64,000 bases of DNA from Patescibacteria group bacterium (GTDB lineage: Bacteria > Patescibacteriota > WWE3 > JAMCXX01), in NCBI GenBank assembly GCA_023474425.1, contig JAMCXX010000002.1, positions 132,217 to 196,216 on the forward strand, given 5' to 3'. Positions 1,934 to 63,788 of the stretch are shown here, one piece after another. A model generated the notes under the pieces. It was not told where the DNA came from. It ran no database searches and was given only the letters and a program-made list of their open reading frames with translations. Made by a program: the position numbers and the translations under genes. The number at the start of each line of letters is the position of its first letter. Position 1 is the stretch's first letter.

Positions 1934-1985
1934 ACTCATATACCTCACCCATTATACCAATAATAAATACTCGCTAATATAGCTA

Positions 1986-2616
1986 CTATAGTGCTTCCAA
2001 CGATTTTTCTGAAAAAAGGAACCGCTTCTCCCCAAAAGGCTTATCATGGTTCCGCACCTGAAATATTAAATAAATTTTGCCGTTCACAAAAGCTCCTCTA
2101 ATATGATCTACCCATCCCGAGAATCTAAATTCCTGATCAAACCAGTCTTGAAAAACACTCTCAGAACCTCCATCCGAAAGCGGGTTAGTCACCAGGAGAG
2201 CTTGACGCGATTCCTTTGAATTAGCATTGACCAAATATAATCCGCGGCATCCGGAACCACAGCCACTCGTAAAAAAACGGCTGTAAATACGATAATTGGA
2301 ACCAAAAGCTTTCTAATCCTTAAGCGTGTAGTCCACGCGTTATGCAGGTTGCTAATAATTAAAGACCGCGTGTAGTGAATGTCCACAATCAATTCGGGCT
2401 CCAGTAAAAGCTTGTGTCGTCCGTTGATCCTGACTTGAGTTGTTTTTCACCTTCTGCTCTAGCCGTAATGGTAACTAAATGCCACGAGGAGAAACTGGAA
2501 AACGCTATTTCTTCTTTCGTGTTAATCGTTCGTTTATTCTTGTCCTCTAGAATCAAATCCATTAAGGTAATATAACATTCTTCGTCCTGCGTAGAAGCCT
2601 CACCTTTTCGGTCCAT
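1986..2616 (-). pseudogene. frameshifted paralog of the N-terminal domain of the SLT-domain protein encoded at 21263..22393
   Basis: Three consecutive minus-strand ORFs lie in three different frames. Frame 1, LILEDKNKRT..HLVTITARAEGEKQLKSGSTDD, matches LIFEDLNKRQ..YLIEIRAGVKGEKQIGGSDDED. Frame 2, LIVDIH, matches LKVEID. Frame 3, SRFFTSGCGSGCRGLYLVN, matches ARYFDSPAGFSGGRLHGLN. Confidence 0.5.
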
Positions 2617-2697
2617 TTTCGGTACATAAAATACCCTAAACCAGACCGTTAGCGGTTGTCAACAGAAAATTTGGGAGAAATGACTGGAGGTTATAAA

Positions 2698-2961
2698 TTA
2701 TAAATGGGATTCGATCCAGGACTTAAAGACTTCTTTGCTGCGGCCGCCTATGAGTCGGTCAACTTCCCTTCCCTCTTTCTCAACTACATAGGTAGGAATA
2801 CTCAAAACCCCATATTTCTGGGCCATAGTCTGATCTTCATCCACATTAACTTTTTGAAACTCAACTTTACCGGAAAGCTCCTTTTCCAATTCTTCCACCA
2901 CCGGAGCCATCATACGGCAGGGACCGCACCAGGACGCCCAAAAATCAATCAGCTTAACCAT
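2698..2961 (-). CDS. trxA: thioredoxin
   Basis: WCGPC active site (FWASWCGPCR), 87 aa. Confidence 0.9.
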   Translation of the reverse strand: MVKLIDFWASWCGPCRMMAPVVEELEKELSGKVEFQKVNVDEDQTMAQKYGVLSIPTYVVEKEGREVDRLIGGRSKEVFKSWIESHL

Positions 2962-3032
2962 ATAAATCTAGTATAACACGTCGCGCAAGAAGGAGGAGAA
3001 AAAGGGAGCAAGGAGTTTGTTATGATGTTAAC

Positions 3033-35415: not shown

Positions 35416-35437
35416 ACTTCGCTGCGCTCAGTATAAA

Positions 35438-35734
35438 TTATTCAATAACCGCTAAAATATCGTCGCTTTTGACAATCAAGTATTCTTTACCCTCAACCTT
35501 AATTTCGCTGCCGCCCCATTTTTTGTAAAGAATTGTTTGCCCCACCTTAACATCCAAGGGAATTACTTTTCCCTCGTCGTCCCGCTTGCCCGCGCCCACA
35601 GCCAAAACCTTGCCCTGTTGAGGCTTTTCTTTGGCCGTGTCGGGAATCACAATACCGGAAGCGGTGGTCGTTTCTTTTTCTAAAGGCTCGACTAAAATGT
35701 TGTCTTCTAAAGGTTTAATCTGGTTCAGCTCCAT
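35438..35734 (-). CDS. groS: co-chaperonin GroES
   Basis: 98 aa with [11 protein letters not shown] and the mobile-loop TASGIVIPD, directly upstream of groL. Confidence 0.95.
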
Positions 35735-35810
35735 AAGTAGTAGAAAACAGCCACAAAATTAGATTCCCAAAGACTCCCATGTGGCAGCCATAATATTCTA
35801 TAACAACCTG

Positions 35811-36625
35811 TCAAGCCCGGTCAAGGTTGGCTATCTTCCTTTGGTATTCGGAAAGAATTTCTTGACGAAGGGAACCGGGGTGCTGCCAAAGCCGCCCCTC
35901 CTCAAATGTTATTCCGGTTAAATCGTAATAGTTGCCTTTTATTTTTTTAACCTGCCAGGCACGGCTTAAGGCTTCCAGTTGGGCAAAAAGTTGTTCAACC
36001 ATAAATTTGCTTCTAAAAACCGCTCATAAGTTTTTCCGCGATTATATAAAACTCTGACTTGGGCAACTTCGTGTGCTAAAACCAAATCATGCTCCTCTTT
36101 GGGCACAGCCAAATTATTTTCATCACACCAGACGTTAATACAAATTGACCGAGAGCTTGGCCTCTTTTTATCGTTACGCTTGCGCCCGACAAACTCTAAA
36201 AAAAGAAAAATAATCATACGGCTTAACCAGAGACGATTCCGGGCGGTAACAATCAGGACATCAACATCACCTGATTCTTCGCTGTTAAACATGGCTACGG
36301 CTCCGGTTAGCGCGACCATTTTAATCCAAGGCAGTCGGAAAATAATATTTAAATAGGCGGCAACACTTCTAACTTTCTTTTCGGAAATTAAACGCCGGCG
36401 CTGACGCTTGTCCACCAGATCCCGCCGCCCCTTAATAAAGTAATAACCCCCAAACCCTTCCAGCTCGTCACGGTTTACTAAGTTGCGTAAAGAGACTTCT
36501 ACTTCGACAAAAGGCACGGGGATTTTGGCATGTAAGAAACGGGCTATCTCGGCTAGGCTTAGCGGATAGTCAAAAATATCGAAGTAGAGAACGGTTTTTA
36601 GAATTTCAGTTTCGGGTCCAAGCAT
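35811..36625 (-). CDS. hypothetical protein(s): a 219-aa ORF (35966..36625) plus an overlapping 63-aa ORF (35811..36002). Either one frameshifted gene or two genes.
   Basis: The two minus-strand ORFs overlap by 37 nt around a T5 run. No motif recognised. Confidence 0.35.
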
Positions 36626-44263: not shown

Positions 44264-44413
44264 GTTGAACTCAAAAGATAATTTAGGTTAAAATTAATAC
44301 ATGCCCGGTGTGTTTCCCCAAAGGAATACCCGAAATTGTTTTAAATCCCCCGTTTTTACTTCTCTAAATTTATTTCCAACAACGATTAAATTCCACAAAG
44401 GGGGTGAGAAAAA

Positions 44414-44629
44414 ATGAGCAAACTTTTACACATGGTCGCTTTTGTTTTGGTGATTGTGGGCGCTCTGAATTGGGGCTTGGTGGGGCTTTTTAATTTCAAC
44501 CTGGTCATGGCCCTTCTTGGCACCTGGCCTACGGTTGAAGCCCTAGTCTACATTTTGGTTGGCCTCTCGGCGCTTTATCTTGTGGCTACCCACATGAACG
44601 ACTGCAAAACCTGCGGCAAGCCGGCATAA
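44414..44629 (+). CDS. DUF378-family small membrane protein
   Basis: 71 aa with GALNWGLVG and two TM helices. SD GGGGTGAG lies upstream. Confidence 0.7.
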   Translation: MSKLLHMVAFVLVIVGALNWGLVGLFNFNLVMALLGTWPTVEALVYILVGLSALYLVATHMNDCKTCGKPA

Positions 44630-44798
44630 AAAAATAAAATTTGAGTTGTTGCAGTATTTTATACTTACGGTTTCACAATAACCGTCTACAGGCGGTGTGT
44701 TTTAGGTCAAAAAATTGATTGGAACGAAACCGGCGAAGGACTAAAAATCCATCAGCTCCCCAATGTCTTCGACGACCTTTACCCGAATAATTAACCGA

Positions 44799-51192: not shown

Positions 51193-51281
51193 TGTGTATA
51201 AAATCATTATATCTGTGGATAACTATGAATATAAATTAACGAGTTATCCACAAGTATTACAAGGAAAACTATTTATCCACA
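51193..51281. promoter_or_regulatory. oriC candidate: DnaA-box cluster in AT-rich DNA
   Basis: Perfect boxes TGTGGATAA (51214-22), TTATCCACA (51244-52) and TTATCCACA (51273-81), plus near-box TGTGTATAA (51193-201). A further TGTGGATAA lies at 52729-37, upstream of dnaA. Confidence 0.6.
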
Positions 51282-52691
51282 TATTTTAAGATTAAGATAA
51301 CTTATCTTTTGAAAGATCTCTCCTTCGTCTTTTACCTCATTTTCAATCTTGTTTACGGCGTGAATAACCGTGGTATGGTCGCGACCACCCAAAATCTGCC
51401 CGGTCTGCACCAGTGAGAGACGACCTAGTGTTCTTAAAAGGTACATGCAAACTTGACGGGGAATAACCAGCTCTTTTTTGCGTCGCGGGCCTATTAAATC
51501 TTTATGGCTTAGATTAAATAGCTCACAAACTTCCTCCATAATTTTTTTAGGCGTCGGTTTTTGCTTTTTGACCAGAAGTTCGTTGTGGAGAAGAACTTCC
51601 ACGGCCAGTTCTAAATTGACCTCCTGGTTCTTAGTTTTGGCGCTGGAAACGATTTGCAAAAAAACCCCTTCCATTTCTCGGATGTTGGTTTTGACTTCCC
51701 GGGCAATAAAATCGATTACCTCATTGGTTACGTTAAATCCGCTTTTGTCTCTCTTGTTTCGAAGTATCGCCGCCCGCACCGTCTCGTCGGGAGCCTGAAT
51801 GTCGGCAATCATGCCGCCGGCAAAACGGGAGCGCAGGCGTTCTTCGAGCAAAGCAATATCCCGCGGCGGGCGGTCCGAGCTTAAAACCACCTGTTTTCGG
51901 GCTAAATAAAGTTGATTGAAGGCGTGAAAAAGTTCCTCCTGAGTGGTTTCTTTGCCGGCCACAAAGTGGACATCATCAATAAGCAAAACATCGGTGTTGC
52001 GGAATTTGTCGCGGAAGCGATGTTGGCTTCGGTGCTGAATGGCTTCTAAAAGCTCGTTGGTGAAAGATTCACCGCTTGAGTAAACCACTTTGGTTTGCGG
52101 CAACCTTTTAATAATTTCGTTGCCAATAGCCTGCATAAGGTGTGTCTTGCCGAGGCCTGTTGAAGAATAAATGAAGAATGGGTTATAGGCAGTACCGGGA
52201 TTTTGGGCAATACTTTGCGCGACCGTAAAAGCCAGCTGGTTTCCTGGTCCTACAACAAATTCGTCAAAGGTATAAAAGGGAGAAAGTCCAAAGGAGACGG
52301 ACTTTAGGTTGGCTGTAACGGGCGGCGTTATAATTTTTGGCGTTTCTAGAGTCGGTGCTAAAGAATCAGTTTGATTGGAGTTTTCTTTTACAAAGCTGTC
52401 TTCAACCTTTTCACCAAAAATCGGTCCCAGTGGTTTTTCTTCCGCTTGGCGCAGGCGAAGTCCCAAATTAAAATCAGTCCCGCCTCGAAATTCGCGAAGA
52501 ACCTTTTTAAGAGATTCTAAATAATGCCGATTAACTCTTTCCAGAGCGAAAACATTGGGAAATAATATTTCAAAATTACCGGCCTCGTCGCCAAGCAACT
52601 CCGTTTTATAAAACCAGGTTTTCACGGTGGGGGGAAGAATTTCCTTTTCCAAAGAGCTTAAAATAATTGGCCACTGTTTAACGGGATTCAT
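51273..52691 (-). CDS. dnaA: chromosomal replication initiator protein DnaA
   Basis: Walker A SSTGLGKTHL, LLIDDVHF, sensor and box VII regions, and a C-terminal DNA-binding domain (DHTTVIHA). Confidence 0.96.
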   Translation of the reverse strand: MNPVKQWPIILSSLEKEILPPTVKTWFYKTELLGDEAGNFEILFPNVFALERVNRHYLESLKKVLREFRGGTDFNLGLRLRQAEEKPLGPIFGEKVEDSFVKENSNQTDSLAPTLETPKIITPPVTANLKSVSFGLSPFYTFDEFVVGPGNQLAFTVAQSIAQNPGTAYNPFFIYSSTGLGKTHLMQAIGNEIIKRLPQTKVVYSSGESFTNELLEAIQHRSQHRFRDKFRNTDVLLIDDVHFVAGKETTQEELFHAFNQLYLARKQVVLSSDRPPRDIALLEERLRSRFAGGMIADIQAPDETVRAAILRNKRDKSGFNVTNEVIDFIAREVKTNIREMEGVFLQIVSSAKTKNQEVNLELAVEVLLHNELLVKKQKPTPKKIMEEVCELFNLSHKDLIGPRRKKELVIPRQVCMYLLRTLGRLSLVQTGQILGGRDHTTVIHAVNKIENEVKDEGEIFQKISYLNLKICG

Positions 52692-52888
52692 GAAGGTGAA
52701 GAGCTAATAAAATCAATATAGTTAAGCCTGTGGATAAGCGTCAATAACTCATAATTATAAATTTCCGCAAACACGTATCCCCTATAGTTCTAACAAATTA
52801 ACATATAAACATCAGCCTTAGGCCGTATCCGATTTCCGGTGACGAAAGAGCTTGACGGAGGCTGTTAATTCTTGGATAGTATAAAGGT

Positions 52889-58794: not shown

Positions 58795-60588
58795 TTAGAT
58801 TCCCACAAAATCCAACGGTTCCAGGACCTCGCCGAAGGCGTCAACATTCATTATAGCAAAGGTTTCTCCCGGCGCCGACGCCTCCACCGTGTAGTGCCCG
58901 TTGGGAACTACAGTGGTAATGGCAAACTGGCCCAAGGCGTTGGTCTTCAAGGCTCTCACCGGCGAGCCGTCGGCATCTTTAACAATAATGACGGCGTTTT
59001 TAATTAAGTCGCCGTTTTTGGCGCGCACATAGCCGCTAATCACGTTGGCCCGATCTTTAACAAACGGCGGCAAGCGGCCAATGCTTTTGGCGGCCGGTGA
59101 GGGAGCCGGTCCGCCGGCCGGCGGAGGCGGCGGGGTAAACCTCTGCTTAAGGCGCAGTTCGCGCATTTCTTTTTGTAGGTTAATTAAAGAGTCGGTGGCC
59201 TGGGTTTTTTCACGGGCCAGCTCCTCAACTCTATGTTCATTGTCTCTAATTTGTTTAATTAAATTCTCCCTATCCGATTGCGTATTGGTTGTAACCTCTT
59301 TAAGCTTAGAAAGTTCCGCTTGGGCCTGTCTAATTTCGTTGCTAAGTCTTGTGTTCTGTGCAGACATTTCGCTTGCCCGACGCTGGTACTCCTCGGCCAT
59401 GGCCGCCAGAGTTTCGGCTTCTTCTCTGGCTTTCTTTTGCTCCAGAAGTTCTTTGGCCAGATTTTCACGGTCGCGCCGCATTTTTTCCAACTCATCCTTA
59501 AGATAGCCTATTCTGGCGGCCTCCTCGCGCTGGGAAATGGTTTCCGGCGATTCGGAAGGCTCTACCGGCTTTGACTGAGTACCCGCCTCTGCCGGAGCCC
59601 CCGTTATATTGCTCTGCTTTGATAGAGTTGAATCATCATGTTTTGACTCTATAACGGTAGATCTGGGAGTAGTTTTTTGGGCTTCGGAAATTTTTTGGTC
59701 CACATCCACAATTCTTTGGGTCAGGTTTTCGGCCAGCTCCGAAGTTTTGGCAGGAGGAGCATCTTCCGGGCGGGAGAGGGAACGCTCGCCTTTAATAGCT
59801 ATGCCCACTTCACCTGGTTTAACCAGCCGCAGTCGGCGCCCGGAACGTACGTTTTGAATGGGGGTTACGAATTTTGGCGCTCCTCCGCTAAGGCTTGGCA
59901 GGCTAATCACCTTTTCCTGCGAAAAATTTATTTCCGAAGCAAGATTTTTGCCAAGCTTAACCTCGGCGCGGGGTTTAAAAGATTCGCGGTCGGAAACTGC
60001 TTCTCCCTCCGCCGGTTTAACGGTAGTGGTAGGCGCAGCCGAAGTTTTGGGGGCCAGAGAGGAAGGCACGGAAACTTCTGACTGCAGGAAAGAAACGCTT
60101 TTTAAGAATTCCTTTTCGGCCAGGTCTTCCGGTGTCAGATTGGCATCCGCCGTTTGGCGTAAGTATTCATTAAGCTGGGATTTGTCGCGCGGCAGGTAGT
60201 TTTGCTTTTCCTGCCTAATGGCGGTGTGTGCTTCCCGCAGTTCAAAAAAAACGTCCAGGTTGGCCGCCCCTTTTCGCCAGACCCGCTCGGTGGGGGAGGA
60301 GACAGCCATTAAAAAGTTCTTGAGCCAGACGTCGGCCGAACGGTCCTGAATGGGGACCAGAGACAAAAAAGCGCCGAAAATGGCCACAACGGCCGCCACG
60401 GGAGTTTTAATAAACGAGGGCATTCCGGAAGAGTAAATAATCCAGGCCAAAATTATAAATACAGCCAAAAGACCGAACTGACGCAGGGTCAGGCCGCCCA
60501 CGAGTTTAAACTCTACCCCCATTACGTTTTGGGGAATGGGGTGCTGCTGGTGTGTTTTTTGGGCCTCAAAAGAATCGTCGTTGGCCAT
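58795..60588 (-). CDS. PrgI/VirB3-like membrane protein fused to a long coiled coil, a Pro-rich linker and a C-terminal carboxypeptidase-regulatory-like beta-sandwich
   Basis: N-terminal GVEFKLVGGLTLRQFGLLAVFII plus a second TM helix (PrgI-like). A Glu/Lys/Arg/Ala-rich heptad region, then PPPPPAGGPAPSP, then ISGYVRAKNGDLIKNAVIIVKD..GQF..PNGHYTVEA. Confidence 0.55.
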   Translation of the reverse strand: MANDDSFEAQKTHQQHPIPQNVMGVEFKLVGGLTLRQFGLLAVFIILAWIIYSSGMPSFIKTPVAAVVAIFGAFLSLVPIQDRSADVWLKNFLMAVSSPTERVWRKGAANLDVFFELREAHTAIRQEKQNYLPRDKSQLNEYLRQTADANLTPEDLAEKEFLKSVSFLQSEVSVPSSLAPKTSAAPTTTVKPAEGEAVSDRESFKPRAEVKLGKNLASEINFSQEKVISLPSLSGGAPKFVTPIQNVRSGRRLRLVKPGEVGIAIKGERSLSRPEDAPPAKTSELAENLTQRIVDVDQKISEAQKTTPRSTVIESKHDDSTLSKQSNITGAPAEAGTQSKPVEPSESPETISQREEAARIGYLKDELEKMRRDRENLAKELLEQKKAREEAETLAAMAEEYQRRASEMSAQNTRLSNEIRQAQAELSKLKEVTTNTQSDRENLIKQIRDNEHRVEELAREKTQATDSLINLQKEMRELRLKQRFTPPPPPAGGPAPSPAAKSIGRLPPFVKDRANVISGYVRAKNGDLIKNAVIIVKDADGSPVRALKTNALGQFAITTVVPNGHYTVEASAPGETFAIMNVDAFGEVLEPLDFVGI

Positions 60589-60638
60589 AGCCTTATTTTA
60601 ACACCATTAAGCTTTAGCCCGCCTATAAACCTATAGCC

Positions 60639-60667
60639 TTGACTTTTGGGAATTTTGGTGCTATAAT
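60639..60667 (+). promoter_or_regulatory. near-consensus sigma70 promoter with extended -10 (TTGACT-17 nt-TGCTATAAT)
   Basis: -35 TTGACT at 60639-44, a 17-nt spacer and -10 TATAAT at 60662-67 preceded by TGC. It points toward the 893-aa gene, about 440 nt upstream of its ATG. Confidence 0.55.
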
Positions 60668-61106
60668 AATAAGGTATAGAAAGGTATTTTAAGAAAGCCT
60701 TTATAAAGGCTAAAAAAGCACTCTAATTCATTTAAGCCTTCGCACCCGTTTTGGGTTTTTGGAGAGACGAGATAAATTTGACCCGTTCGACAGGCTCAGG
60801 GCAAGCATCCGACAACCGATATTTAGAAGAAGCTAATAGGCAAAAAGTTCGTCCTCCAATACCAAAAGGGCGGTTTTTGGTTTGTCCGATTTGACTAATT
60901 TGCCTAATTGGTCAGATTGGACTAATCAGGGTCCGGCTCTTTGACAATTGAATAGTAAGGTTTAACCAGAACCTTTACCCGTCGCGAAGGGAGTAGAGAA
61001 AGATTGTTTCGCGTCAGGGTTTAATCTGGAATAAACGAGACGAAAGTCTCGAGAAAAATAAATCGAAGAAATAAAAATATCAATCAATGTCCAAAAGGAG
61101 GACAAG

Positions 61107-63788
61107 ATGTACGATTACGACGATCTCGACCAAATGGAGGTTGAGGCGATGGATGTAGACGAAGGAGCTCCGGCCGACGAAAAAGAAGCCGAGCGCCGAC
61201 GCCGCATCGCCGCCGTCCGGTCGCAGTACTTTAGCAACCTGGTCTTTGCCGGATTGCTCGAGGAGTACCGCGAAACGGGCGAGCCTATTGGCATTACCCC
61301 GCAGGAGTTGAAGGTTTTGCTAAAAAGCGAGCTTTCCTATTTCCTGCGCGATGACAAGCCGGAACGCATGGTCTGGTACGACCTAGCCGGTAAAAGTCAT
61401 CGGTTCCGTGTGGACGGCGATGAGACAGCTTTCTTTTTTGGTCCCTACGGACCTCTGGAGAAAGCGTCTAAGGATCCGAAGCATGAATACTTTGCCGTCT
61501 ATCGCAAGTACGAAGAGACGTATCCCCACCTCAAAAACAAGTGGGTGGAGAGAGTCGTTGAGTGGTCCAATCCCGACGACCCGGTTGACCCCAACGGTCA
61601 ATGGAAGGAAACGGGGTTGAAGGAATGGAAGACCACGTGGGTAGACAGAAACAACCACTACGCCGCAATGGGAATGCGTCGGAGCAACAAGCGTTTCGGA
61701 GTTGAGAAGATCGAGAATCCGGCTACCAAGGTGGAAGAAACGGTTCCGGAGGGGAAACGAACACGCGTCGGGGTCACCGAATTCTTTATGGAAGAGTGGC
61801 TGCGCCTCAAGAAGTTTTTGAGGGACGCTAATGCCACCAAAGATCCGGTTACAATCAAGCAGGCGCGGGCGGCGGTTTACGCTTACTGCCGGACCTACGC
61901 CGACTCCGACTGGAAAGGGTTTGTTGAGTGGGGCGGCAATGAAGTAGTGATGAAGTTCTTTAGGATGTCCCGCGAGCACGAAGATAAAACTTCGGTCGCC
62001 CGCGAGCTTAGCCGCTACGAACAAGCCCAGGACATAATCTCCGGTTCCATGCTTTACCAGTTTCTTGACCTCATTAAGATGACCAAGAAATTGCGCGAGA
62101 CCAGGCTAATCCGCGACCCGGCCACAGGCTTTACTGTCTACGACTGGAAGGACGCAGTAACCAAGACGGTTATCACCGGTTTTGTCTGCAGTGACAAAGC
62201 TACGGCCGTCCGCATCTTCTATCTCCTACAGCAAATCGCCGGTGGGGTTTCACCGAATGTGGATGAGCCGGTAACCCGCACACCGCGGGACGAAGCTGCT
62301 TTACTTCCAGACGCTCAAACCGGACCGGACTGGGAAGTTTTTGGCGACTTTTACCTGACCATCGAACCTTCGGTTATACCGGAGCGTAAACGGCCGACGA
62401 ACGTGCCGAGGACAGGGAGTGAGGAGTATTTCCGGTTCGAGGACGGCATGCGCCAACGGGTTCTTTGGTATTGGCTCGACCGAGCCGATGCCGAAACCAT
62501 TCGTGCTCTGAATCGACTTGAGGCGGACAATCTTCTTACCGTGAAGATTGTGGAGGATGCCTTCCGCTGGGACGGCAACGTTCGTTGCTATGCCCATTGG
62601 TCGGCGACTCCTGCTGGGGAAGCGCGCCGTCAGGCCTTGAGGCTTGATTATCACGAGCGTGCCTCCATCCAAGAAGAAACCAAGATGTTAGTTAACGGAG
62701 AGCGGGAGACCATGAAGTGGAGCGACGCCAACAAAGCGTTTGACTCCCGAGACGGTTTGTACTGGAGGCTCCCGCCCTTGCAGGCCGAGCGCCGGGACTA
62801 CTGGCTCGATTACATCGACCAGTTGCACTTCCGGTGGTTCACGCATCCCGAGTTGGGATTGGCGGCTTACGAAGGGACAGACAGATCCGCGGCGGAGAAA
62901 GCCTTCGTGGAGGGCTTTGGTAAGCATCACAAAGAGCTCTCCATCTTTGGCAATCGCGCCTACCCGCTCCTGCAGAATCTGTTCCGGTTTGCCGACGGGC
63001 GGACGGCTCTGGGTAACTTTCTCGAGTCGCGCGGCGCCAATGCCCGCGTGATGCAGCCTCCAAGAGATCCAAAATATGGGACCGGCTACGATCCCGACGC
63101 GCGTTGTGTTGGTCAGATCGTGAATGGTGCCTATGCCCGGCAACGTTTCGACGGTCACACTCATGGCGAAGATGTCATGATGTGTGAGGCCAAACATCCG
63201 GGCGAGAGTCCGCGGCAGCACTACATGCGTGTGCGCTACATGCGCAATATAGCGCGCATCATTCTCGGTTGGCTTAACCGCATGGTTGACAACGAGAACT
63301 GGCTCAACGACTACTACTCCCACCTACCTACTAAGATCCAGAATGCCCGGGAACTTCTCGATCTGAAACTCGAAATGATTAAGGGCGGTAACGCTAGAGC
63401 CGTCCTTATCATGACTTTCAGCGAATGGATTTTAGGTCAGGGAGGAAAGGACGAGGAGCGGGTGCGTTCCCTGGTCGAGAAGAAATTCGCAGCTATGGCC
63501 GACGTCCTTTTGCCCGGCGTTTCGGAAAAAGAGATCGAGGTGGTGGAAAGGGCTTCGGAGGACATGTGGCTCGATATGATGCTGCATGTTACCAAGTTCG
63601 TCTTACAGAGTATACGCTCGAAAGAGATTCGAGCCTCCCACATCGGAGAGACAGAAAAGGATCTTGTCCGGACGCTCGACTACGAGGTCTACGGGTATCT
63701 GCAAAAGAATCCCTGGGCCCGTGAAGGTTTGAGCCTCCAGTTCAAGGAGATTACTGGGCAAGATCTACGATGGGAGGGTTGGGATTGA
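61107..63788 (+). CDS. 893-aa orphan protein (no recognisable domain); acidic N-terminus, rich in Trp, Arg, Glu and Asp
   Basis: A 2.7-kb uninterrupted ORF with SD AAAGGAGGA 5 nt before the ATG. It looks GC-richer than its surroundings. I found no Walker, RuvC/HNH, DDE, HUH-with-Tyr or CxxC motifs. Confidence 0.8.
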   Translation: MYDYDDLDQMEVEAMDVDEGAPADEKEAERRRRIAAVRSQYFSNLVFAGLLEEYRETGEPIGITPQELKVLLKSELSYFLRDDKPERMVWYDLAGKSHRFRVDGDETAFFFGPYGPLEKASKDPKHEYFAVYRKYEETYPHLKNKWVERVVEWSNPDDPVDPNGQWKETGLKEWKTTWVDRNNHYAAMGMRRSNKRFGVEKIENPATKVEETVPEGKRTRVGVTEFFMEEWLRLKKFLRDANATKDPVTIKQARAAVYAYCRTYADSDWKGFVEWGGNEVVMKFFRMSREHEDKTSVARELSRYEQAQDIISGSMLYQFLDLIKMTKKLRETRLIRDPATGFTVYDWKDAVTKTVITGFVCSDKATAVRIFYLLQQIAGGVSPNVDEPVTRTPRDEAALLPDAQTGPDWEVFGDFYLTIEPSVIPERKRPTNVPRTGSEEYFRFEDGMRQRVLWYWLDRADAETIRALNRLEADNLLTVKIVEDAFRWDGNVRCYAHWSATPAGEARRQALRLDYHERASIQEETKMLVNGERETMKWSDANKAFDSRDGLYWRLPPLQAERRDYWLDYIDQLHFRWFTHPELGLAAYEGTDRSAAEKAFVEGFGKHHKELSIFGNRAYPLLQNLFRFADGRTALGNFLESRGANARVMQPPRDPKYGTGYDPDARCVGQIVNGAYARQRFDGHTHGEDVMMCEAKHPGESPRQHYMRVRYMRNIARIILGWLNRMVDNENWLNDYYSHLPTKIQNARELLDLKLEMIKGGNARAVLIMTFSEWILGQGGKDEERVRSLVEKKFAAMADVLLPGVSEKEIEVVERASEDMWLDMMLHVTKFVLQSIRSKEIRASHIGETEKDLVRTLDYEVYGYLQKNPWAREGLSLQFKEITGQDLRWEGWD

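Follow-up and report, generated by a model that had tools for sequence, protein, structure and literature searches.

The region upstream of an 893-aa orphan gene in the 64,000-nt stretch of DNA analysed here (the window) is best explained as a promoter followed by a long, structured 5' UTR leader of that T4SS-linked gene, a reading to which we assign a probability of about 0.6 on the basis of sequence comparison and predicted folding. The original prediction had offered three possibilities for this region, namely a long regulatory leader, a separate ncRNA working with the orphan protein, or an operator or iteron region. The first of these is favoured by a conserved promoter, mid block and ribosome-binding-site hairpin, by compensatory base changes, by a hairpin specific to the plus strand, and by the lack of a terminator in the window and in the two relatives L004 and L012. 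The leader is an uncatalogued promoter-plus-leader, with no sign of an unusual mechanism or a new principle. Its non-coding control region is far better conserved than the big protein encoded behind it (about 25% identity, and unalignable in the distant lineage L005), so that promoter, mid block and SD hairpin offer concrete handles on the control of a fast-evolving gene.

Locus, orphan protein and related lineages

The leader lies in a 518-nt gap without a notable ORF (60589-61106) between two divergent genes, which encode a PrgI/VirB3-like T4SS protein with a CarboxypepD_reg domain, identified by profile search (58795-60588, minus strand), and the 893-aa orphan protein (61107-63788, plus strand). 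The long distance to the next start codon was borne out, as the first credible start is the ATG at 61107 and the intervening sequence holds only unconserved ORFs of at most 47 aa. The window belongs to the MAG of an ultra-small Patescibacteria bacterium, and the identical Logan contig L001 was used to extend the locus. One flank of the locus contains a TrsD-like gene, a VirB4-like ATPase gene, dnaN, yidC and dnaA, and an M23 peptidase and T4SS pilins are encoded further downstream. The locus is chromosomal and adjoins dnaN in all relatives examined. An origin-proximal chromosomal layout of the T4SS is already known for Patescibacteria, in which this system is kin to the monoderm (pCF10-type) machinery, and the T4SS cluster was essential to the epibiotic lifestyle in the single strain tested (PMC12102498).

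Profile searches with the 893-aa protein returned zero matches in Pfam, NCBIfam and PDB, and from 1.84 billion representatives an exhaustive HMMER search retrieved only four related clusters, with identities of about 25%. Judged from these sequences, the protein family is extremely rare and fast-evolving. A word-index homologue search returned nothing, either from the single sequence or from an 8-sequence alignment; this null result is uninformative because the tool missed even an exact sequence known to be in the collection. The AlphaFold2 model of the protein had a pLDDT of 38.7 and was unusable.

Loci of relatives were recovered through the PrgI-like neighbour and the proteins of the four HMMER clusters. 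Full or largely complete leaders were obtained for five lineages, comprising the window, L004 (the same as L010, L011, L034 and L035), L006 (the same as L013 and L014), L012 and L016. Partial leaders came from L031, L033 (325 nt upstream) and L036 (62 nt), and two distant lineages, L005 and L002, were also included. Among the closer lineages, identity stands at 48-54% for the PrgI-like proteins and at about 25% for the big downstream proteins; towards L005 and L002, that of the PrgI-like proteins drops to 35-36%. In relatives where SNase and toxin-antitoxin-like genes intervene, the leader element stays with the big gene and not with the PrgI gene. In L005, a large protein without detectable homology to the 893-aa protein is encoded behind the same promoter type and mid block. 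Additionally, regulator genes stand immediately beside the PrgI-like gene in two relatives, one of the Trp-repressor family (L031, 917-1363) and one PaaX-like (L030, 598-1311), and both are candidates for putative regulators of the locus.

Promoter P1, its tandem copy and the 5' module

The near-consensus promoter of the original prediction proved to be real as a sequence match. Promoter P1 (60639-60667, plus strand) consists of a -35 element TTGACT, a 17-nt spacer and an extended -10 element TGcTATAAT, agrees with consensus at 11 of 12 positions in addition to the TG, and was the top match of a promoter scan over 58-64 kb. This predicted promoter has every feature of the sigma-70 extended -10 class (-35, spacing of 17±1, TGn and TATAAT), and nothing else in the 64 kb fitted a regular expression for P1-type promoters. 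The P1 layout recurs in eight related lineages, and the distant L002 and L005 retain TTGACT-17-TGGTATAAT. Judged from promoter spacing, transcription from P1 would start at about 60673-60675.

The -10 element and the first ~6 transcribed nt form a near-invariant 18-mer, TATAATAATAAGGTATAG (60662-60679, plus strand), with CTATA-N9-TATAG symmetry, which was recognised by lineage comparison. It is single-copy in the 64-kb window. Of six distinct lineages, five share it letter for letter and L012 departs at one position; protein identity across these lineages is 48-54% for the PrgI-like and about 25% for the big proteins. A search of viral contigs gave 11 matches to TATAATAATAAGGTATAG, all attributable to chance and none with a -35 context. 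Directly 5' of the -35 element, CCYATAGCC (60630-60638, plus strand) is present in the window, L004, L006, L012, L016 and L031, and is possibly an UP-like element or a regulator site. TATAG/CTATA pentamers cluster strongly at P1, where the 57 nt from 60623 to 60679 hold 5 of the 59 copies in the window; these TATAG-type elements are putative, and likely, protein-binding sites controlling initiation. The PrgI-like gene has a ribosome-binding region (TAAAATAAGGCTATGGCC, 60570-60600 in the window and 5975-6005 in L004) that is also kept between lineages and is similar to the invariant AATAAGGTATAG at the leader start.

The relatives carry a diverged tandem promoter, P2, about 175 nt after P1, composed of CCTATAG and TGGACA-17-GATAAT/TAAAAT (10 of 12 positions). 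P2 lies at 5673-5701 in L004 and at 3257-3285 in L012, with equivalents in L006, L016 and L031, and within each lineage the copy varies in step with P1. From the window P2 has been lost; a degenerate remnant, CCGACAA...TAATAG (60809-60839, plus strand), aligns with the P2 of relatives and fails the promoter scan.

The four hairpins named in the original prediction are all present where they had been placed, with z-scores that are singly modest (-1.4, -2.4, -2.9 and -3.9). The 5'-proximal one is the palindrome AGCCTTTATAAAGGCT (60696-60711, plus strand; AGCCTT-TATA-AAGGCT, modest z), and a competing fold (60706-60740, plus strand) pairs AAGGCTAAAA (60706-60715) with TTTAAGCCTT (60731-60740). 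Within this hairpin region, TTTAAGCC is common to the window and its relatives. In all relatives, a stem-loop begins within ~10 nt of the predicted 5' end, with similarly modest z-scores. The 5' domain has almost no consensus structure across relatives, and the central stretch of the window leader (60739-60860) is no more structured than shuffles (z -0.5). A pairing between the 5' end and the distant P2 region was set aside as too short and palindromic to judge, and a 6S, SRP or RNase P identity of the 5' module was rejected on the lack of an Rfam match and the wrong shape.

The E. coli ompA 5' UTR and the Bacillus thuringiensis cry3A STAB-SD are known 5'-stabiliser leaders. As in these systems, a long leader stands behind a strong promoter with no terminator within it, and the first ~10-20 predicted nt contain a stem-loop or a purine-rich, SD-like AAGG, AGGAG or GAGG in every lineage. 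By this analogy, the 5'-proximal stem-loop and the purine-rich 5' end would protect the transcript from P1. Unlike the ompA and cry3A stabilisers, with which it has no sequence kinship, the present leader has extra conserved internal blocks, plus the tandem promoter in relatives.

Overall fold, mid block and translation initiation region

Relative to shuffles, the whole leader folds better on the plus strand (-126.4, z = -4.4) than on the minus strand (-104.5, z = -2.6). No intrinsic terminator, consisting of a GC hairpin with a U-tract, was detected before the ORF on the leader strand in the window, L004 or L012, which argues against a terminator platform of the attenuation or riboswitch kind. 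The Rfam search called for by the original prediction yielded no family, with zero matches at the gathering threshold of release 15 across the entire 64 kb. The best sub-threshold matches were to miRNA-precursor models (28 bits, where gathering requires 100; spanning 60864-60943), and these signal a long hairpin and nothing more. The window scored 22 bits against the covariance model R1, for which E-values are rough, and most of this score came from the primary sequence of the mid block. A leader peptide was also considered and rejected, as no small ORF is conserved and the central region is not alignable.

The mid block, GGCTCTTTGACAATTGAATAG (60935-60955, plus strand; consensus GCwCyTTrACAA-N3-AATAG), is shared with L004, L006, L012, L016 and the distant L005, and is thus retained out to a lineage whose downstream protein is unalignable. 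It occurs once in the window (0.04 expected). Two functions for the mid block were tried and rejected. Duplexes of the mid block with the translation initiation region (TIR) had energies no better than shuffles in six lineages (z -1.3 to +1.3), which disfavours an anti-SD role, and no -10 element lies at a usable spacing on either strand, which disfavours a promoter.

In four relatives, a helix A enclosing a hairpin B lies directly 3' of the AAUAG of the mid block, with 95.8% of positions paired compared to 21-63% in slid controls. RNAalifold independently predicted both helices, and four compensatory pairs were found in the four sequences, a number of independent lineages too small for significance. 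The corresponding module of the window fold (60957-61036, plus strand) forms either the local hairpin AAGGTT/AACCTT (60957-60975) or, alternatively, a helix of CCAGA (60966-60970) with TCTGG (61025-61029), which encloses CCCG-CGCGAA...TTCGCG-CAGGG (60978-61019). We infer from these modelled folds that the helices of the window are homologous to helix A and hairpin B of the relatives.

The module is followed by a GNRA-capped hairpin, CGAGAC-GAAA-GTCTCG (61036-61051, plus strand; z = -3.9), and L004 carries CGAGAC-ACAAA-GTCTC at a similar place. This hairpin is not a leader terminator, since no U-tract follows on the plus strand. Further downstream, an A-rich block with ATAAATCGAAGAAATAAAAATATCAAT (61054-61087, plus strand) shows 82% identity over 50 nt to L004, with nearly the same sequence in L036, and is likely an unstructured translation-initiation enhancer. 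The last element before the gene is an SD-presenting hairpin, TGTCC-AAAAGGA-GGACA (61088-61109, plus strand), in which the SD sequence AAGGAGG (61095-61101) is held in the loop of a covarying 4-5-bp stem. The stem exists in four versions (UGUCC/GGACA, UGCUC/GAGCA, GCUC/GAGC and UCCC/GGGA), with compensatory change at three of five pairs, again in too few independent lineages for significance. The covariation statistics are weak because the comparison covers only about 6-8 related lineages, several of them close kin. The SD hairpin and the A-rich tract would together set translation initiation.

The spacer hairpin and the proposed mode of action of the leader

Between the P2 remnant and the mid block, the window is predicted to form an imperfect RNA hairpin of ~80 nt with 34 bp and a 5-nt loop (60865-60942, plus strand). 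The stem comprises 26 Watson-Crick and 8 G·U pairs with no A·C, its interruptions are only 1 nt long, and at its base AAAGGGCGG pairs with GGCTCTTT of the mid block. The hairpin is far more stable on the plus strand (-39.7 kcal/mol, z = -7.8) than on the minus strand (-15.7 kcal/mol, z = -2.5). This asymmetry was kept under DNA folding parameters (-16.3 on the plus strand and -6.1 on the minus strand), which points to a single-stranded plus form, either RNA or ssDNA, and not to recognition of duplex DNA.

The two 16-nt direct repeats of the original prediction do exist (60884-60899 and 60911-60926, identical at 14 of 16 positions), but they are primarily the arms of the 34-bp hairpin, and resemble direct repeats because each 16-mer contains the near-palindrome GTC-N6-GAC. 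A scan for 16-mer repeats found three matches against 0.6 expected. The expected conservation of the repeats in relatives failed, as the GTC-N6-GAC motif is missing from every related leader and has two copies only in the window. These findings bear on a DNA-level function, in which the palindromes would serve as operators or iterons, or the inverted repeat as an oriT-like or ssDNA hairpin of the T4SS locus. The two near-palindromic 12-mers, with starts 27 bp apart, lie between divergent T4SS genes, the plus strand folds better under DNA parameters too, and the TATAG cluster suggests protein-binding sites at the promoter. However, besides the restriction of the motif to the window, the complementarity reaches 34 bp, well past the repeats, with its eight G·U pairs and not one A·C; neither a relaxase gene nor a replication gene lies nearby, relaxases being absent from most Patescibacteria T4SS clusters (PMC12102498); and the region has no plasmid or phage similarity. 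We therefore consider a DNA-level element very improbable, and the operator or iteron reading of the repeats was not upheld.

The more specific DNA-level candidates were also rejected. An iteron array or a set of operator repeats needs at least three regularly spaced, conserved copies, and only two are present, with inverted matches as well. An oriT or plasmid origin is disfavoured by the lack of a relaxase domain in the neighbours, the chromosomal position by dnaN and the lack of plasmid similarity. For oriC, no DnaA boxes were found in 60589-61106; they cluster instead at 51193-51281, where three perfect TTATCCACA boxes and one with a single mismatch lie just downstream of dnaA (51273-52691, minus strand), with a further perfect box upstream of dnaA at 52729. 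The cumulative GC skew has its minimum near 48 kb in a coarse profile with 1-kb steps. The cluster at 51.2 kb, ~9 kb from the leader, is likely the replication origin.

The spacer separating P2 from the mid block differs among lineages, measuring ~60-200 nt in most and more than 1200 nt at its longest, and holds differing hairpins. In L004 it contains two 13-bp stems with G·U pairs (-41.4 kcal/mol on the leader strand against -29.3 kcal/mol), and in L005 a perfect 11-12-bp palindrome. In L006 and L016, it carries insertions of 0.4-1.2 kb bearing antisense ORFs, with both flanking modules intact, and these inserted genes mark the spacer as an insertion hot spot. The inserted antisense genes (480-1640 in L006 and 2170-2560 in L016, loci in which the leader is oriented along the minus strand) encode a coiled-coil protein of 82-126 aa, together with a toxin-antitoxin-like pair in L006. 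L016 also contains a ~125-nt palindromic element (~2095-2235) with one copy of the 15-mer ATGTTGCACCTTGAC, a segment of the mid block, on either side; from its sequence, this duplication resembles that of a target site hit by a small mobile or hairpin element. The mid-block segment GGCUCUUU pairs with a run of purines further 5' in the window, L004 and L006, and in the window this closing helix is merely lengthened by the 34-bp hairpin.

The 34-bp hairpin itself is lineage-specific, being conserved in neither sequence nor form. The conservation of helices in relatives, on which the original prediction had placed weight, would hold in part: helix A and hairpin B, like the SD hairpin, show compensatory changes, in too few independent lineages for significance, whereas the 34-bp hairpin is not conserved, and the 5' domain shows nearly no covariation. 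The hairpin could accordingly be a palindrome without function that was inserted or expanded in this lineage, within the spacer of a real leader, a reading that its lack of conservation, the wide range of spacer length at an insertion hot spot and the palindromic element between the ATGTTGCACCTTGAC copies of L016 would suit. We regard this as rather unlikely, given that all eight non-Watson-Crick pairs are G·U on the plus strand, an enrichment possibly owed in part to C-to-T mutation bias on the non-template strand; that the base of the hairpin pairs with the conserved GGCUCUUU, as a short upstream purine run does in L004 and L006; and that no second copy of the hairpin occurs within the 64-kb window, although multiple copies would be expected of a MITE- or REP-like element.

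The insertions in L006 and L016 count against a continuous leader, as a transcript from P1 would there read antisense through other genes. They raise the question whether the region consists of two separable units, with the P1/P2 module forming an independent small RNA of ~170 nt or a stand-alone regulatory module and the gene having a shorter leader from near the mid block. The intactness of both modules around insertions of 0.4-1.2 kb fits such a division, as does the separate conservation of the 5' module and the mid/TIR module but not of the spacer. No terminator, however, follows the 5' module on the leader strand in the window, L004 or L012, no sigma-70-like promoter lies at or 3' of the mid block, the 5' domain has little consensus structure, and no Rfam family matches, so that we consider the division doubtful. 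The idea of an ncRNA acting on its own as partner of the orphan protein is thus not supported, though the promoter-proximal ~170 nt are separable in the insertion-bearing relatives.

According to the favoured reading of a long structured leader, transcription would run from P1 through the leader into the 893-aa gene, with initiation controlled at the TATAG-flanked promoter or promoters, and the leader would act in cis on mRNA fate through stability, processing or translation. We infer these steps by analogy with known leader systems. Hairpins in the 5' UTR are processed by RNase III in the S. aureus cspA leader and in the E. coli pnp and rnc leaders. The window resembles these in having a predicted, strand-specific duplex of more than 20 bp in the 5' UTR upstream of the TIR, and its 34 predicted pairs exceed the at least ~20 bp of near-continuous dsRNA typical of an RNase III substrate. 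The 34-bp duplex, the base of which would sequester part of the mid block, may thus be a helix of the RNase III-cleaved kind, and cleavage there may, by analogy, detach the 5' module from the mRNA. Unlike the hairpins of the cspA, pnp and rnc leaders, the present one is not conserved, and the relatives have shorter, different hairpins.

Leader or antisense control of conjugation and T4SS operons is known from the pCF10 prgQ leader with Anti-Q and from the F traJ leader with FinP. Similarly, the present structured leader heads genes in a T4SS cluster. Unlike the prgQ and traJ leaders, its leader strand has neither an IRS1-like terminator nor a peptide ORF, the region holds no convincing antisense promoter-terminator unit (9 of 12 matches only), and the leader has no sequence similarity to plasmids.

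A more far-reaching version of the leader reading is that the region is an undescribed, clade-specific cis-regulatory RNA, in which the 5' end, the mid block (UUGACAA-N3-AAUAG), helix A and hairpin B form a sensor or protein platform gating the T4SS-associated protein, with the promoter-proximal ~170 nt possibly also acting as a small RNA. We judge this to be a long shot; if true, the platform would gate a rapidly evolving T4SS-associated protein, for example upon host contact. The leaders collected here could seed the alignment of a new leader family, which is of moderate practical value, and TATAATAATAAGGTATAG and TTGACAANNNAATAG can serve as query strings for gathering further leaders. Across the 64-kb window, which contains no tRNA genes, other gaps of 0.3-1.1 kb with short ORFs only are located at 1949-3032, 35416-35965 and 44264-44798.
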